Assembly: GCF_015295825.1 (NCBI RefSeq)
Contig: NZ_DVEH01000027.1
Location: 1,382-65,381, forward strand
Direction: 5' to 3'
Source of the DNA: Thermosynechococcus sp. M98_K2018_005
GTDB lineage: Bacteria > Cyanobacteriota > Cyanobacteriia > Thermosynechococcales > Thermosynechococcaceae
Length of the DNA: 64,000 bases
Under the pieces are notes generated by a model. That model worked only from the letters and a program-made list of their open reading frames with translations. It was not told where the DNA came from and ran no database searches. Position 1 is the stretch's first letter. Each line of letters opens with the position of its first letter. The position numbers and the translations under genes were made by a program. Positions 4,426 through 38,676 of the stretch are shown one piece after another.

Positions 4426-6351
4426 CTATCCAGAAAAAGGCTCAGCAATGGGAATCGTAAAGTGGAACTCACTGCCGCGATCGCGCCCCGCCGACTCCGC
4501 CCAAATTTGCCCCCCCAAATTGGTAATGATCTGGCGACAGATCGCTAGACCCAAGCCCGTCCCACCCGTAGAGCGCCGCAGTGCGCCCTCCTCCTGATAA
4601 AAGCGATCAAAAATCGTTTCCAAGCGATCCGGCTCAATACCGCGCCCAGTATCGGCAACCGTCACTTCCAATAGACCATCGGGACGAGGCTTGGCAACAA
4701 TGGAAACCTGACCCGACTGCTCAGTAAACTTGCAGGCATTATCCAGTAGCTTTGAGAGCACCTCCACTAGCCATTCGCCATCTGCTCGGATCAAGGGCAA
4801 TTCCTTGGGCAACACCGTGCGAATAGTCGGTAGTTGATCCTTGGGGGTGCGCAGACTACTGAGAGCCATATCCACCAGTTCTTGGAGGGGCAGAGGTTCT
4901 GGTCGCCACTGCACCCGGCCACTTTCCAACTGCGAGAGGGTGAGGAAGTCCTGAATCAGTTTCCGCATGCGCTCAGCATCAGTGAGAGCGGTACTCAACA
5001 TCATCTGCCGCAGTTCTGGATCCATATCGGGTTCACTCGCTAGACTTTCGAGGCAGACTTGAATGGTCGAAAGGGGCGTGCGCAGTTCATGACCCGTAAT
5101 TGCAATTAAATTGCTGCGGGTGCGATCTAAGGCCTCTAGTTGCGCATTGAGTTCCTCCAGATCTGCGTAGGCCTCTGCCTGAATCAGGGCAACCCCCACT
5201 TGGGTGGCGATCGCCTCCACCAATTCTGCGTCCATATCGTGCCACGGCAGCGGTTCACCTCGGTGGAGTTCAACAATGCCCAACAGCCGCCCCTGATAGA
5301 GAACCGGTGCCAGTAGGAGGGCTTTGACCCCGGCGGCATCGAGGGGCTTGAAACGGGTCGCCTCATAGTGGGGATCAGCGGCCACATCATCCACCTGAAT
5401 AACCTGCTGATGTGCCAGTGCCTGCTGGGTGTAGGGGTGTTCACTTACGGGCCAATACTGGTACTGCAATGGCGGTAGGGTACCACTGGTGTACTCGTGT
5501 TCAATGCGCACCCGCGTATCGGTACTGCGGCAACGATAAATGAGACAGCGATCGCCCTTGAGGGCTTCCCCTAGTTCTGCCACTGCACGAGTGAGAATTT
5601 CTGTGGGATTAAGGGAGTTGCGAATCGCCGTGGTAATCGCATTGGTGAGGCGTTCCTTGCGCTCTTGAATGGCAATTTGGCGGTAGGCCTTGATTTGCTT
5701 GTACTGGCCTGCCTGAAGATAGGTCACTAGGCGATCGGCAAAGGGGGCAGGATCGCTATTGCATCCCGCCACTTGGCGATAGGTCTCAACCCATACCAGA
5801 CCTTCCTTGAGTTTCTCCTCCAGTTCAGGGCGGTACTCCCGAATACGGTTCAGGAGGATTTCAGCCGTTGTGGCTGCCACTTGCCGATCAAAGGTCCAAA
5901 TGCCCTCAAAACGACGCGCCGCATCCATCGGCGGCAACACATCTAAGCGATTAGCGGGCGATCGCTGGACTTCGCGGCAGACCAAGCAAGTGCTGTAATT
6001 TTTACCCAAGACCGTCAAATGCCATTCTTGACTGAGGGCATCGGCGGGATCAAAGGCAACCGTTTCATAGTCTCCCGAGCAGTTCTTAAACTCGGTTTCC
6101 GGAGCAGCCAAAACGTAAACATGGTGGGACTTTGTGGCAATGCGCTGGTAGCGATGGGCTTCTTGGCGATAAAAACGTTCCCGCTGAAAGCAGGCAATAA
6201 TAATCGGCGCATCCTCATTGGCCAAAACCTGATCCTCCATTGCATGGGAAAGCGCCGTCAGCGATGTCTTGAAGTACAGTTGCGATCGCAAGCGAGGCAA
6301 CCGCGCCAACAACTCCTCAAGAACAGATGTGGCAATGATTCTGTTGGCCAT
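4426..6351 (-). CDS. Sensor histidine kinase with N-terminal sensory domain and GAF domain
   Basis: H-box ITGHELRTPL. HATPase N, G1 and G2 boxes are present (LDNACKF, DTGRGI, GGTGLGLAICR). The central GAF-like region reads DRCLIYRC...LLAPVLYQGRLLGIVELH. Confidence 0.9.
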   Translation of the reverse strand: MANRIIATSVLEELLARLPRLRSQLYFKTSLTALSHAMEDQVLANEDAPIIIACFQRERFYRQEAHRYQRIATKSHHVYVLAAPETEFKNCSGDYETVAFDPADALSQEWHLTVLGKNYSTCLVCREVQRSPANRLDVLPPMDAARRFEGIWTFDRQVAATTAEILLNRIREYRPELEEKLKEGLVWVETYRQVAGCNSDPAPFADRLVTYLQAGQYKQIKAYRQIAIQERKERLTNAITTAIRNSLNPTEILTRAVAELGEALKGDRCLIYRCRSTDTRVRIEHEYTSGTLPPLQYQYWPVSEHPYTQQALAHQQVIQVDDVAADPHYEATRFKPLDAAGVKALLLAPVLYQGRLLGIVELHRGEPLPWHDMDAELVEAIATQVGVALIQAEAYADLEELNAQLEALDRTRSNLIAITGHELRTPLSTIQVCLESLASEPDMDPELRQMMLSTALTDAERMRKLIQDFLTLSQLESGRVQWRPEPLPLQELVDMALSSLRTPKDQLPTIRTVLPKELPLIRADGEWLVEVLSKLLDNACKFTEQSGQVSIVAKPRPDGLLEVTVADTGRGIEPDRLETIFDRFYQEEGALRRSTGGTGLGLAICRQIITNLGGQIWAESAGRDRGSEFHFTIPIAEPFSG

Positions 6352-34648: not shown

Positions 34649-35440
34649 TTAAGCATCAGAGTCATCTGGAATATCTAGGGCTTCAGCATCACCATCGTCG
34701 CTGGCGGTCATCCCATCGTCGTCCTCATCAGCGAGATCCGCTTCCGGTTCGTCCAACTGACCATGGCGGCCTTCGTAAATGGCATCGGCTAGTTTACCCA
34801 CAATCAGCTTAATCGAACGGATGGCATCATCGTTAGCGGGGATGGGAATATCCACTTGGTTGGGGTCACAGTTGGTATCCAGCAGCGCCACGATCGGAAC
34901 CCCCAATTTGTGACACTCGGCAACGGCGTTGTACTCCCGCTTGACATCAACAATGATTGCGACATCGGGCAGCCGCCGCATCTGTTTGATCCCGCCAAGG
35001 TATTTTTGCAAGCGTGCCAGTTCTCGCCGTAGGGCTGAGGCCTCCTGTTTTGGCCGCAGATCAATGAGGCCATTTTCCTCCATGCTTTCTAATTCTTTGA
35101 GGCGATCGACACGGGTTTTGATGGTATTCCAGTTGGTGAGCATCCCCCCCAGCCAGCGCTGGTTGACGTAGTAACTACCGCAGCGGAGCGCTTCCTGCTC
35201 GACGATGCCGGCGGCTTGGCGCTTGGTACCAATAAACAAAAAGCGTTTGCCTTTTTCGGCGGCGTTGCGGATGTAGTTGTAGGCTTCATCCAACAGTTGG
35301 GCGGTTTGTACGAGGTCAATAATGTGCACCCCATTGCGAACCGTGAAGATGTAGGGTGCCATTCGGGGGTTCCAGCGACGGGCTTGGTGACCAAAGTGAA
35401 CCCCTGCCTCTAGCATTTGGGCAAGGCTAAGAACTGCCAT
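34649..35440 (-). CDS. rpsB: 30S ribosomal protein S2
   Basis: The sequence includes [19 protein letters not shown]. There is an acidic C-terminal tail. It lies upstream of tsf in the conserved rpsB-tsf order. Confidence 0.97.
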
Positions 35441-35657
35441 TGAGTTGTACTCCTATGGGTTAAACAACCATCCGTCCATCATCCGGTGAGGACACCCAAG
35501 GGGACGAATGTGAAAGATTTGCAGATTTATTATCATAGCCAATGATCAAGGCCGTTGGAAAGCCCGATCCACAATGATTTGGTAGCGTCGCGATCTTGAC
35601 GCTCGGGGGTGGCCAACCTATTCTGAAAGATTCAAGACGGCTGGGTGGTGCTTAACG

Positions 35658-37112
35658 TTGGATATTTCCCGCTTGCGATCGCAATGGCAACAAATTCACG
35701 GTGACGAAACCTCTGAAGCCGTTATTGAGCAGCACTTTGTGCAACCGCTCCTGAGTATGTTGGGCTTTGGCGATCGCGATCGTGTCTCCTCTTTTGACAC
35801 AGGTATGGGCATTGCCGATGTGGCAGCCCGTTTTCCCCGGGAGCATCAGCCTCCTTTTTCTCAGATTCAAGTTAACCCCGATTTAATTGTGGAGATTAAA
35901 CCCCCTGCCCGTCGCTCCCGCAATACCCCCAGTCAAACTGTGGCCTTGAACCTTGAGAATGGGTCTGCGCACCATAGCCGCGCTCTGCAACAACTCCGCC
36001 AACTTCTCAGGGGTTGCCATTGCCAAGGAACCACTTGGGGATTAATTACAAATGCCCGCCATCTACAGCTTTTTCAACGCCACGGCCACTTGGTCTATCC
36101 AGTAACGCCCAACTATGAACTGACGGGCGATCGCCTTGAGAGCATTATCGACGATCTCAAAACCTGCTTGCGATCGCGCCCCCGTGCCACCACCCTCTGT
36201 CTCTATAACCACAAGGGGGGAGTCGGCAAAACCACCACCACAATTAACTTGGGCGCCACCCTTGCTGTGGCAGATGCCGCTGTCTTGCTCGTTGATTGCG
36301 ACCCCCAAGGGGATCTCAGCCGCGCCCTTGAGCTAACCCCCACAGGTACAACCCTTGCGGCTTGTCTGCAAAACCCTGAGGAGCCGATTACGGCTACGAT
36401 TCGACCTTTTGACCTGCGCATTCGCACCAGCAGCAGTATCAAGTCTGCCCATATTTTTGATGTCATTCCCGCTGCGCCGCAACTGCAAAGCATCCTCATT
36501 CAGGCGATGCAAACCCAACATCCACCCATTACCCGCCTGCGGGAACTCCTCGCCCCCTTGCGCGATCGCTACGACTACATCCTCATTGACTGCCCCAGTG
36601 CTTGGCTCTTTTTAAGTAAGAGCGCCGTGTATGCCAGTGACGCCGTTTTGATTCCCACCCGCCACACCGATCTCTCCTCCCTCAACAATGCCGCTCAGGT
36701 GATTCACCAATTTCTTTTTAACGAAATTCACACATTGCGCCGCGAAGGGGGGCCCCTTCCTTTGCCTATTTTCTTTAATGGTGCTCCCACAACCGATAAG
36801 GCGATGGCTGTTGCTCAAGCAGAAATTGAACGGATTCTCCAGAAACTTCCCCACCTCACTCCCTACTTTTGGCCACAGTATCAAGCCAATGACACAAGCG
36901 TATTTGCCATTCCTGAATATGCCATTATTTCCCGTGCTGCCTTTGCCCGTGTTCCTGCTGTCTTCAAAGATAAGCGCGTCTTAGGCTTCTATCAGACATT
37001 GGTGCAGGCCTATCTTTGCCCCTTAACTCCTGCCAATGAGACAACCTTCCTAAACCGATCAGAAATTCAACATCGTCGATCAGAAGCTCCAAGCAATGGA
37101 GACCAAGTTTGA
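35658..37112 (+). CDS. Fusion protein: N-terminal HSDR_N / PD-(D/E)xK restriction-endonuclease-like domain plus C-terminal ParA/Soj-family ATPase
   Basis: The N-terminal ~170 aa carry SEAVIEQHFVQPLLSMLGF, GIADVAA, DLIVEIKPP and WGLITNARHLQLF, which matches the D...ExK and TNG pattern of type I R-subunit N-terminal domains. The C-terminal part has the deviant Walker A LYNHKGGVGKTTTTINLG, VLLVDCDPQGD and ILIDCPSAW. TTG is the first available in-frame start. Confidence 0.75.
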   Translation: MDISRLRSQWQQIHGDETSEAVIEQHFVQPLLSMLGFGDRDRVSSFDTGMGIADVAARFPREHQPPFSQIQVNPDLIVEIKPPARRSRNTPSQTVALNLENGSAHHSRALQQLRQLLRGCHCQGTTWGLITNARHLQLFQRHGHLVYPVTPNYELTGDRLESIIDDLKTCLRSRPRATTLCLYNHKGGVGKTTTTINLGATLAVADAAVLLVDCDPQGDLSRALELTPTGTTLAACLQNPEEPITATIRPFDLRIRTSSSIKSAHIFDVIPAAPQLQSILIQAMQTQHPPITRLRELLAPLRDRYDYILIDCPSAWLFLSKSAVYASDAVLIPTRHTDLSSLNNAAQVIHQFLFNEIHTLRREGGPLPLPIFFNGAPTTDKAMAVAQAEIERILQKLPHLTPYFWPQYQANDTSVFAIPEYAIISRAAFARVPAVFKDKRVLGFYQTLVQAYLCPLTPANETTFLNRSEIQHRRSEAPSNGDQV

Positions 37113-37326
37113 AGAAAGACTCAATGCAATCGAAGTCAAATTCGATGCAAAATTCAACACAATGGAAGCAACTCTCAATGAACGATTCAAGGCTATTGAT
37201 GAAAAGTTCAATGTAATAGAGGCCACCATTAACCAAAAATTCAAGGCTGTTGATGAGAAATTTAACACCATGGGCGCAAAAATTGAGGCTGTGCGATTAG
37301 AAGTACAGACCAATCGCGAACAGTGA
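37096..37326 (+). CDS. Small helical repeat protein (76 aa, 18-residue periodicity)
   Basis: The ATG ORF overlaps the upstream gene by 17 nt. It has three 18-aa repeats: KFNTMEATLNERFKAIDE, KFNVIEATINQKFKAVDE and KFNTMGAKIEAVRLEVQT. It is visibly AT-richer than its flanks. Both antisense frames are also open because of the repeat structure. Confidence 0.5.
   Translation: METKFEERLNAIEVKFDAKFNTMEATLNERFKAIDEKFNVIEATINQKFKAVDEKFNTMGAKIEAVRLEVQTNREQ
37150..37311 (+). repeat. Three tandem 54-nt repeats (coding)
   Basis: The units are 37150-37203, 37204-37257 and 37258-37311. They correspond to the 18-aa repeats of the small ORF. Confidence 0.75.
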
Positions 37327-37523
37327 GTGGAGTTAGAAAAACGCCAGCGGTGCGTTGCCATTGGGGGATTGAAAACCAAGTGGACTGGGTGCCGGATGTG
37401 GCTTTGACTACCTCGCTCCTCTCCTTGCCACTATCTGAGTATGCGTTTGCCCTGTGGGCAGAGACACAAGACTTCAAAACTACGGTAATCTTATAGAGAA
37501 ACTAGAGTATTGCTGGCAGTCCT

Positions 37524-38534
37524 ATGGGCATCACTATTGAAAACGTTTCTAAGTCCTTTGGCTCCTTTCAAGCCGTCAAGCAGGTGGATTTGGATATTGC
37601 CAGTGGTTCTTTGGTAGCGCTGTTGGGGCCTTCGGGTTCTGGTAAATCAACCTTACTGCGACTGATTGCGGGTCTAGAAATGCCTGACACTGGCCGGATT
37701 CTGCTCACGGGCAAGGACGCCACCTATCAAAGTGTCCAAGAGCGTAATATTGGCTTCGTCTTTCAGCACTATGCCCTTTTTAAGCACATGACTGTGCGTC
37801 AAAATATCGCCTTTGGCCTAGAGTTGCGCAAGGTGCCCCGTGCCAAGATCAAAGCTCGGGTCGAGGAGTTGCTCGAGTTGGTGCAGTTGGCTGGCTTAGG
37901 CGATCGCTACCCCTCTCAGCTCTCTGGGGGACAACGCCAGCGGGTGGCTCTTGCCCGTGCCCTTGCTGTAGAACCAAAGGTGCTGTTGCTGGATGAACCC
38001 TTTGGTGCCCTTGATGCCAAGGTGCGCAAAGAACTGCGAGCATGGTTACGTCACCTCCACGATGATGTCCATGTGACAACGGTCTTCGTGACCCATGATC
38101 AAGAGGAAGCGATGGAAGTCGCGGATCAAATTGTCGTCATGAACAAAGGTCAAGTGGAGCAGGTGGGCACCCCTGCTGAAATTTACGACCATCCCGCCAG
38201 CCCCTTTGTGATGAGTTTTATTGGCCCTGTGAATGTCTTACGCTCCCGCGTCTTCCAGCAAAGTGAAGGCACGGCTGCCCACTGCGATATTTTTCTGCGC
38301 CCGCGCGACATCATTATTGAAACGAGTCCCAATGGTAACACCGTCTCAGCTCGCATTCACCGCATCATTCACTTGGGTTGGGAAATTCAGGTAGAACTGC
38401 GCCTAGACGATGGGCAGGAATTGATGGCACACCTATCGCGAGAGCGCTTTGACGAACTGCGCCTTGAACCGCAACAGCAGGTCTTTATTAAGCCACGGGA
38501 GGCAAAGTCCTTTCCCCTGTACTACAGCATTTAG
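37524..38534 (+). CDS. cysA: Sulfate/thiosulfate ABC transporter ATP-binding protein
   Basis: Walker [10 protein letters not shown], signature [15 protein letters not shown] and Walker B LLLDEP. The C-terminal TOBE-like regulatory domain is typical of CysA. Confidence 0.85.
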
Positions 38535-38604: not shown

Positions 38605-38676
38605 TGGGGTGTCGCCAAGCGGTAAGGCAGCGGGTTTTGGTCCCGCCATTCGGGGGTTCGAATCCTCCCGCCCCAG
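38605..38676 (+). tRNA. tRNA-Gln (anticodon UUG)
   Basis: Hand-folded cloverleaf. The acceptor stem tggggtg pairs with cgcccca, the anticodon arm is gcggg-ttTTGgt-cccgc, and the T-arm reads gggggTTCGAATCctccc. CCA is not encoded. Confidence 0.9.

Follow-up and report, generated by a model that had tools for sequence, protein, structure and literature searches.

A nuclease-fold domain fused to a ParA ATPase in Thermosynechococcus: a candidate cyanobacterial DNA maintenance module beside a decayed repeat gene

ATPases of the ParA/MinD type are the main positioning machines of bacteria. What does such an ATPase do when it is preceded by a restriction-endonuclease-like domain, and with which protein does it work? 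The question is raised by a gene at 35658-37112 of the stretch of DNA analysed here (the window, 64 kb from the metagenome-assembled genome (MAG) of Thermosynechococcus sp. M98_K2018_005). An initial annotation had read this gene as a nuclease-like domain fused to a complete ParA ATPase, and as translationally coupled to an overlapping gene for a 76-residue repeat protein, the partner or cargo adaptor of the ATPase. The two-gene coupling falls on comparison with related genomes, whereas the fusion family and a newly recognised partner remain a worthwhile lead. By analogy with characterised systems, the fusion and this partner, which is encoded next to it in other cyanobacteria, would form a ParA-ParB-type DNA maintenance or positioning module that is mostly cyanobacterial, a reading to which a probability of roughly 0.6 is given here, and in which the 76-residue reading frame is a gene remnant. 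The fusion gene and its two domains are the following.

35658-37112, plus strand: HSDR_N_2-like/ParA fusion gene, an open reading frame (ORF) with a TTG start, encoding 484 residues
35658-36176, plus strand: residues 1-173, predicted PD-(D/E)xK (restriction-endonuclease-like, HSDR_N_2-type) domain, from Pfam matches of orthologues, an AlphaFold2 (AF2) model, Foldseek and conservation
36177-37038, plus strand: residues ~174-460, ParA/Soj-type ATPase domain, from Pfam, NCBIfam and Foldseek

A nuclease-fold domain in front of a ParA ATPase

The 484-residue product has been deposited as HIK34744.1 / WP_297048709.1, a 'ParA family protein' of Thermosynechococcus sp. M98_K2018_005 (exact-sequence look-up), and both its TTG/GTG start and its N-terminus, MDISRLRSQW, are conserved among Thermosynechococcaceae. 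The two reading frames of the initial annotation are both present where it had placed them, overlapping by 17 nucleotides (nt; 37096-37112), and every motif that it had quoted is found in the fusion translation: EAVIEQHFVQPLLSMLGF (residues 20-37), GIADVAA (51-57), DLIVEIKPP (75-83) and WGLITNARHLQLF (127-139) in the N-terminal part, and KGGVGKT (186-192), DCDPQGD (213-219) and IDCPSAW (310-316) in the C-terminal part.

That the C-terminal part is a complete ParA/Soj-type ATPase is borne out by family, fold and motifs. The Pfam family AAA_31 matches residues 179-350 with an E-value of 6.9e-30 and 104.7 bits (cut-off 27), CbiA matches with 47.5 bits (cut-off 25.4), and MipZ is matched as well. 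The best NCBIfam similarities are to ParA_partition, RepA, PrgP and SopA, all under the equivalog cut-offs. A Foldseek search with the full-length AlphaFold model (predicted local distance difference test, pLDDT, 83.4) returned ParA-ATP (8ray), Soj (6iub, 2bej) and McdA (6nop) with E-values of 1e-15 to 1e-11, the best being 3.6e-15. The deviant Walker A motif K186GGVGKT with its signature lysine, the Walker A' motif D213-C-D215 and the Walker B residue D311 in IDCP are invariant in the orthologue alignment. Judged by its sequence and modelled fold, this domain is a member of the ParA/MinD (deviant Walker A) superfamily and has every feature of it that was tested.

The N-terminal domain is less easily recognised. 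Residues 1-170 of the window protein have no Pfam match at E ≤ 1 and no significant match in NCBIfam, and when the PDB was searched by sequence, either with this domain by itself or with a profile of 18 sequences, the only matches were UBA and MIT domains at E > 0.1. Of 18 non-redundant N-domains from orthologues, however, 13 match HSDR_N_2 (PF13588; best E 9.1e-8), six match HSDR_N (PF04313) and three match PDDEXK_9, and the relative P0283 reaches 29.5 bits, the cut-off for HSDR_N_2 / HSDR_N (PF13588 / PF04313) being 25. The membership of the window protein in HSDR_N_2 / HSDR_N follows only by way of its homology with these Pfam-matching orthologues (33-40% identity). Because ParA matches dominated the full-length structure search, the N-domain was modelled by AlphaFold separately from the full-length protein and searched with Foldseek on its own. 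The AF2 model (pLDDT 93.5) has the helix-strand-strand-strand-helix-strand order of PD-(D/E)xK nucleases, with helices at residues 20-34 and 104-117 and strands at 42-47, 52-57, 76-80 and 127-131; D54 lies on strand 2, E79-x-K81 on strand 3 (K81 at its end) and Q112 on the helix that follows. Only one Foldseek match falls below an E-value of 1e-3, that to BpuSI, a restriction enzyme of type IIG (3s1s, E 6.6e-4, probability 1.0), and several EcoR124I HsdR chains follow lower, at E 0.04-0.8 and low probability. By its model, the N-domain is of the PD-(D/E)xK type in both fold and motif placement. The assignment made in the initial annotation therefore stands at the level of family and fold, through the orthologues, the AF2 model and Foldseek, whereas the window sequence itself draws no direct Pfam match. 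Ranked second among the structural matches of this domain is an uncharacterised protein from Leptospira (PDB 6okh).

The candidate active-site residues of the N-domain are E20, D54, E79, K81 and Q112. The alignment of the D/E/K catalytic residues, which the initial annotation had put forward as a check, holds throughout the family: across 121 N-domains, D54, K81 and Q112 are present in 121, E79 in 120 and E20 in 119. Argued from this conserved triad, metal binding or catalysis would be under selection. Q112 and a tyrosine at position 116, found in 114 of the 121, have a Q-x-x-x-Y spacing similar to that of the QxxxY motif in HsdR nucleases and those of the RecB family. The other seven N-domains, all of them from the closest relatives of the window protein, have leucine at this position, as does the window protein itself (Leu116). 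A profile of the N-domain retrieved 140 representative clusters (E ≤ 1e-3) among 1.84 billion proteins, and 44 of the 52 matches of at least 400 residues contain KGGxGKT, located ~160-240 residues in for lengths of 424-515 residues. These clusters, few and mostly ParA fusions, argue that the N-domain is a separate nuclease-fold subfamily that is essentially dedicated to ParA fusions.

Could the fusion be a frameshift, or an artefact of the assembly? The homology search listed 120 full-length orthologues, almost all cyanobacterial, of the same architecture, 428-464 residues long and collinear over both domains, which argues that it is neither; on this comparative evidence, a domain of restriction-endonuclease fold is genuinely joined to a complete ParA ATPase. 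Identity to the window protein is 90-92% in other Thermosynechococcus (457-463 residues, versus 484 here), 77-80% in Parathermosynechococcus and a Thermosynechococcaceae isolate, 59% in Ca. Synechococcus calcipolaris, and 41-46% in Thermostichus, Leptolyngbya, Nostoc and others. In pairwise comparisons within Thermosynechococcaceae, the ratio of nonsynonymous to synonymous substitution rates (dN/dS) is 0.10-0.21 for the N-domain and 0.06-0.11 for the ParA domain, with the exception of one very close pair with few substitutions (0.50); overall it lies at 0.06-0.21 in 14 of the 15 comparisons. Both domains are, by this measure, under purifying selection. Identity declines with taxonomic distance, which, taken with the low dN/dS, looks like the vertical inheritance of a housekeeping gene.

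Three relatives (P0311, P0336 and P0320) carry extra modules in front of the unit of N-domain and ParA: a superfamily 1 (SF1) helicase (AAA_11/AAA_12) in two of them, with DUF559 in addition in one, and HEPN_Swt1 in the third. Outside cyanobacteria, the same unit occurs in Leptospira sp. 96542 (locus L013, 3929-5257) and in a Ca. Berkiella MAG (locus L015, 670-1986), in both cases without the Rho_N-type partner described below.

The partner gene in other cyanobacteria

A conserved protein of 221-310 residues is encoded by the next same-strand gene after the fusion in 12 of the 12 non-Thermosynechococcales cyanobacterial fusion loci that had enough downstream sequence (Thermostichus-type Synechococcus, Microseira, Myxacorys, Leptolyngbyaceae, Nostoc, Trichodesmium, an uncultured cyanobacterium, Limnothrix, Chroococcopsis, Merismopediaceae, Fischerella and Phormidium). 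This partner gene either overlaps the fusion gene or comes straight after it, except in Chroococcopsis, where an insertion sequence (IS)-like insertion lies between the two; in this locus, from Chroococcopsis gigantea (L009, 5271-6067), the pair is split by two minus-strand ORFs that are transposase-like in appearance. Seven of ten partner proteins show matches to ParB_N that are weak and under the Pfam cut-off (best E 1.6e-3), and six of the ten have a C-terminal Rho_N domain (E 2.9e-10). The family numbers 1106 members at E ≤ 1e-3, most of them annotated as 'Rho termination factor N-terminal domain-containing protein'.

Between these parts lies a middle domain (...NLS.ASRDEI.AAL.YLI..PGS.LKGV....A..RI.EA.R..W..F.PIT.L.CGITKGKKL..L..VF.L) that is duplicated in some lineages (L006, 2159-3088, Trichodesmium; L002, 5319-6116, Microseira; L005, 1189-1983, Nostoc). 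In the Microseira and Nostoc partners the second copy replaces the Rho_N tail.

The pair of fusion and partner is also found on plasmids. It is present on two plasmids of Nostoc sp. UHCC 0870, where it adjoins a small site-specific integrase gene; both plasmids also carry a ParM/StbA gene, and one has a further ParA-type ATPase. Matches to both genes of the pair lie close together on a plasmid of Acaryochloris marina. On chromosomes, apart from the partner, the neighbours of the fusion are unrelated housekeeping genes. The Thermosynechococcales differ: tblastn with ten partner proteins found nothing below an E-value of ~0.03 in the 64-kb window, and none beside the fusion gene in six Thermosynechococcales loci (Thermosynechococcus, Parathermosynechococcus, the Okahandja strain and Ca. 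S. calcipolaris).

How does this arrangement compare with known ParA systems? In layout it resembles the type Ia plasmid systems (P1 ParA and F SopA with ParB and SopB), which likewise have an extra N-terminal DNA-directed domain, a ParA gene just upstream of that of the partner, and plasmid copies; the NCBIfam similarity to partition ATPases (below cut-off) and the presence of P1 ParA (3ez2) among the fold matches point in the same direction. The N-terminal domain of type Ia ParA is a helix-turn-helix (HTH) region for operator binding. In the fusion family, by contrast, this domain has the PD-(D/E)xK nuclease fold and its catalytic-type residues are conserved, and the partner is not a canonical ParB, having a weak ParB_N match, no visible GERRxR box and usually a Rho_N tail. 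The Soj/ParA proteins of Thermus thermophilus and Helicobacter pylori are among the best fold matches for residues ~175-455 (8ray, 6iub, 2bej; E 1e-15 to 1e-13) and share the deviant Walker A motif with its signature lysine, but Soj is ~250 residues long and has no N-terminal domain. Nor was a ParB/Spo0J homologue found in the window, or parS-like repeats near the fusion gene, as the Soj-Spo0J/ParB-parS system would have. The hallmark of canonical ParABS, an adjacent ParB with HTH and a ParB_N domain that binds cytidine triphosphate (CTP) through GERRxR, was found neither in the window nor in the Thermosynechococcales loci.

McdA/McdB, which positions carboxysomes, offers another parallel, being a cyanobacterial ParA-type ATPase with a small partner encoded downstream, and McdA structures (6nop, 6non) are among the fold matches. 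The solved McdA chains of ~260 residues, however, leave no room for a 170-residue nuclease-fold N-domain, and in place of McdB the window has a gene fragment, the family's partner elsewhere being ParB_N-like/Rho_N. A downstream McdB-type partner conserved beside the orthologues was not found, since the 76-residue ORF is truncated and absent by close orthologues, and no carboxysome genes were identified among the examined neighbours of the fusion gene. The fusion system is neither canonical ParABS nor McdAB. As for the N-domain, the nuclease domains of EcoR124I HsdR and BpuSI (PF04313 / PF13588) share its fold, its motif placement and the D...ExK plus QxxxY pattern; they differ in that the fusion has no helicase motor, methyltransferase or specificity subunit, and a ParA ATPase is fused instead. 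The fusion/partner family is an uncharacterised variant of ParA-ParB-type systems with a nuclease-fold ATPase.

A full-text search of the literature found no paper on the HSDR_N-ParA fusion or on the Rho_N/ParB_N partner. A survey of the ParB fold (PNAS) has no occurrence of Rho_N, 'Rho termination' or HSDR, and a paper on conflict systems (eLife) mentions only inactive MinD/ParA-like effector domains that are unrelated to the fusion. Cyanobacteria have been described as having no classical ParABS segregation mechanism (2020 review, PMC7766704), and deletion of the chromosomal parA of Synechococcus PCC 7002, a gene that may or may not belong to the fusion family, caused no segregation defect (bioRxiv 10.1101/661256). 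The fusion family would bear on the question of how genome copies are organised and inherited in polyploid cyanobacteria: a widespread, vertically inherited nuclease-fold ParA with its own ParB_N-like/Rho_N protein would be a testable candidate for a DNA maintenance module or for a nuclease gated by ATP.

Positioning, gated cleavage or defence

In the reading favoured here, the ParA domains would dimerise on DNA once ATP is bound, in the manner of Soj and ParA, and the dimer would carry two nuclease-fold domains to the DNA, where a given site or structure would be recognised and perhaps cut. The product of the next gene, present in most cyanobacteria, would attach to the DNA cargo, perhaps through its Rho_N/SAP-like tail, and would trigger ATP hydrolysis, as ParB does. 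The pair may in this way act as a DNA maintenance or positioning module on chromosomes and plasmids alike. Thermosynechococcus and its relatives keep the ATPase under purifying selection with no partner gene adjoining it. The missing adjacent partner and the change from tyrosine to leucine in QxxxY suggest a modified, possibly partner-independent role in the Thermosynechococcus clade.

Several points weigh against a positioning module. The mechanism rests on analogy, and the literature search found no experimental study of any member of the family. With the partner missing from its locus and leucine in place of the QxxxY tyrosine, the protein of the window clade may act differently from its relatives. 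The window N-domain is silent in Pfam and in PDB sequence searches, and the ParB_N similarity of the partner is weak. In the alignment, the partner has GNxF(I/V)Y at the presumed position of the arginine-rich GERRxR box of ParB, so that CTP switching of the ParB type is unlikely for it. Centromere-like repeats were not found in 35380-35720 and 36950-37560, which hold only short repeats at chance level and no tandem array. Because both Nostoc plasmids carry ParM/StbA, the pair is not needed to explain their partitioning. Finally, the invariant nuclease triad suggests catalysis, which no partition ParA is known to perform.

A second, tentative reading puts the cleavage itself at the centre: a ParA-type ATP switch would gate an active PD-(D/E)xK nuclease in an unrecognised two-gene system with the ParB_N/Rho_N partner, the Thermosynechococcus version being partner-independent. 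This is possible, though distinctly less probable than a maintenance module. If true, such a gated nuclease could resolve, process or police genome copies in polyploid cells, which goes beyond positioning.

More doubtful is a role in defence or conflict, in which the ParA domain would be a DNA-bound switch, the PD-(D/E)xK domain an effector against foreign DNA, and the ParB_N/Rho_N protein a sensor or regulator. The D-ExK triad and Q112, invariant or nearly so, and the nuclease domain of a restriction enzyme as the closest fold are consistent with this idea, as are the occurrence of the pair on mobilizable or conjugative plasmids and the rare relatives with an SF1 helicase (AAA_11/AAA_12), DUF559 in one, or HEPN_Swt1 in front of the N-domain-ParA unit, these being domains typical of conflict systems. 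In the Leptospira locus L013, one of the two non-cyanobacterial loci, two small downstream ORFs resemble a toxin-antitoxin pair by sequence appearance. PADLOC matches to the fusion, however, are weak and confined to the Walker A region (E 8e-6, residues 165-215), and the chromosomal copies sit among varied housekeeping genes, outside defence islands. The loci examined have no adjacent methyltransferase or other self-protection gene, and identity that tracks taxonomy, with low dN/dS, looks like that of a vertically inherited housekeeping gene. Taken together, these points make a defence role unlikely.

A decayed repeat gene downstream of the fusion

If the partner in other cyanobacteria is a ParB_N-like/Rho_N protein, what is the 76-residue ORF that overlaps the fusion gene in the window? 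The features between the ParA domain and the next intact gene are the following.

37039-37112, plus strand: assembly-specific read-through tail of the fusion, residues 461-484 (ETTFLNRSEIQHRRSEAPSNGDQV), from protein and DNA alignments
37054-37347, plus strand: remnant of a gene for a tail-anchored coiled-coil repeat protein, from in-frame homology, tblastn and alignment with HN-54 DNA
37096-37326, plus strand: 76-codon ORF with an ATG start, the open part of the repeat-gene remnant, with three 54-nt (18-residue) repeats
37350-37420, plus strand: remnant resembling the C-terminus of an ISAs1-family transposase (..RCHWGIENQVDWVPDV..), from weak tblastn matches, at the 3' breakpoint of the repeat remnant
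37524-38534, plus strand: ATP-binding cassette (ABC) transporter ATPase of cysA type, a conserved downstream neighbour in Thermosynechococcus, outside the module

The overlap itself has a simple origin. The tail of residues 461-484 is present only in this assembly; in the alignment, 92%-identical orthologues stop at ...PLASADDLS or similar, and orthologues of 90-92% identity terminate 21 codons earlier and have no ORF of the 76-residue type. AlphaFold gives residues 456-484 a pLDDT below 30. Relative to the DNA of the related loci L081, L082 and L084 (strain HN-54), the window has no counterpart of 12 nt (ACCTCxCCTAAC) that hold the native TAA stop. This deletion took the native stop, so that translation runs 24 codons into the remnant and the 17-nt overlap arises. 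The tail is encoded by former spacer and by the repeat-gene remnant, in a frame other than the remnant's own.

The initial annotation was right about the repeats, which are three direct 54-nt copies, two of them at 63% and 70% identity to the reference copy. The ORF that carries them is incomplete at both ends. Its homologues form only eight clusters of 119-130 residues, of which all named ones are from Thermosynechococcus, and the full-length repeat proteins (104-180 residues) have the N-terminus MSEPITQSQLAEVLETMKA..., a variable number of KF-type repeats, and a conserved hydrophobic tail anchor at the end, KIEAVRLEVQTNREQLVELGKRQGSTDNRLWALLVALFLMVAGLLAKITLFDQV. In the frame of the ORF, homology extends past both of its ends (...S*TDQKFNIVDQKLQA-METKF...VQTNREQ*VELEKRQ), and tblastn with the full-length repeat protein P0122 spans 37036-37401 of the window. 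The ATG of the ORF is an internal methionine codon in some full-length paralogues, and the TGA that ends it (37324-37326) stands where the HN-54 gene has TTA, a leucine codon. Seven codons after this TGA the repeat homology stops at the ISAs1-transposase-like remnant, and the membrane anchor is gone; at the other end, the first ~45 codons of the repeat gene and the spacer, present in HN-54, are both missing. The exact 76-residue sequence was not found in a collection of 15 billion proteins, searches of Pfam, NCBIfam and PADLOC with it gave only coiled-coil noise, and blastn of the remnant region against plasmids returned no match. From these comparisons, the ORF is a pseudogene fragment of a Thermosynechococcus-specific family of tail-anchored repeat proteins.

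The ISAs1-like remnant is itself faint: tblastn aligns 22-23 residues at 65-68% identity (E ~1e-2), under genes annotated as ISAs1 family transposase, and there is no Pfam match. It resembles the C-terminal HWxIEN...DV motif of these transposases, and the same remnant is present in the related metagenomic contig L082 (~5408-5453). An old IS insertion seems, on this sequence likeness, to have helped to shape the intergenic region between the ParA gene and cysA.

In HN-54, three intact tandem paralogues (126, 104 and 180 residues) lie directly after the ATPase gene, 94 nt away. L081 retains another, N-terminal remnant at the site, L082 has no trace of a repeat gene there, and in other strains the repeat cassette lies elsewhere, beside genes for a major facilitator superfamily (MFS) transporter and clpB. 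By these comparisons, the cassette is a genus-restricted and unstable element that is decaying at this site while the ATPase gene is preserved. As an element in its own right, this Thermosynechococcus-restricted cassette consists of two to four tandem paralogues (L084, 4001-5261, HN-54, CP098039; L085/L086, 3785-5791) of 104-180 residues, with the same N-terminus, KF-type repeats of 11/18 residues and the same C-terminal membrane anchor. Its copy number, repeat number and genomic location vary between strains, and Pfam gives coiled-coil noise only.

Might the 484-residue form, with its tail and overlap, be an artefact of MAG assembly from collapsed paralogous repeats, the real gene having the normal 463 residues? 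In favour of this, the sequence comes from a MAG, an assembler could be misled by the 54-nt repeats and the paralogous sequences, and all other Thermosynechococcus orthologues are 457-463 residues long. The differences from HN-54 (the 12-nt deletion, the loss of the spacer and the 5' part, the change of TTA to TGA) are nevertheless of the kinds that natural decay makes, and the flanks are collinear with those of related genomes. At the same site, L081 and L082 have decayed independently and in different ways; this argues that the locus is genuinely unstable and that a natural deletion is likelier than a misassembly, so that an artefact is improbable.

Least probable of all is the arrangement proposed in the initial annotation, a translationally coupled positioning or surveillance module in which the repeat protein serves the fusion ATPase as activator or cargo adaptor. 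Its 17-nt overlap is real, HN-54 does have three full-length repeat paralogues 94 nt downstream of the ATPase gene, the window and L081 both have remnants at that place, and coiled-coil proteins are frequent among ParA partners, McdB and PomX being examples; but the overlap stems from a stop-removing deletion peculiar to this MAG, the ORF has a premature TGA and neither a native 5' end nor a membrane anchor, L082 has no repeat-gene trace at the site, the cassette of other strains stands beside MFS and clpB genes and away from any ParA gene, the repeat family of eight clusters is confined in its named members to Thermosynechococcus while the ATPase family spans cyanobacteria with another partner, and the ATPase is under purifying selection while the cassette decays. 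The comparative data thus largely refute this model: the small ORF, a truncated fragment, is absent or unconserved next to close orthologues, an outcome that the initial annotation itself had named as one that would speak against its proposal. The 484-residue gene model carries a spurious tail of 24 residues, and the 76-residue ORF should be annotated as a pseudogene fragment.

The flanks of the fusion gene are as first described: tsf and rpsB lie upstream on the minus strand, and cysA, which in orthologous loci is an ABC ATPase with TOBE domains, lies downstream, followed by tRNA-Gln at 38605-38676. In some relatives the neighbours include genes of DNA metabolism. In the Okahandja strain, two recJ paralogues flank the fusion gene (L088, 1669-3981 and 5359-7590), one of them ending 20 nt before its start; in P. 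lividus, a convergent recJ overlaps its 3' end (L083, 5359-7584); in Ca. S. calcipolaris, holB and gyrA are its neighbours (L087, 374-3820); and in Microseira, holB and an ORF that is tmk-like in appearance lie upstream (L002, 1589-3374). A link through such neighbours (holB, tmk, gyrA, recJ) was considered; it is suggestive at most and unproven, other loci having unrelated neighbours.

HIP1 (GCGATCGC) occurs 104 times in the 64 kb of the window, against ~0.9 expected by chance. No copy lies in 36570-37899, which includes the remnant region, a stretch that is too short for this to be significant. The fusion gene holds five of the sites. It is conserved across cyanobacteria and, as first suggested, long resident in the chromosome.

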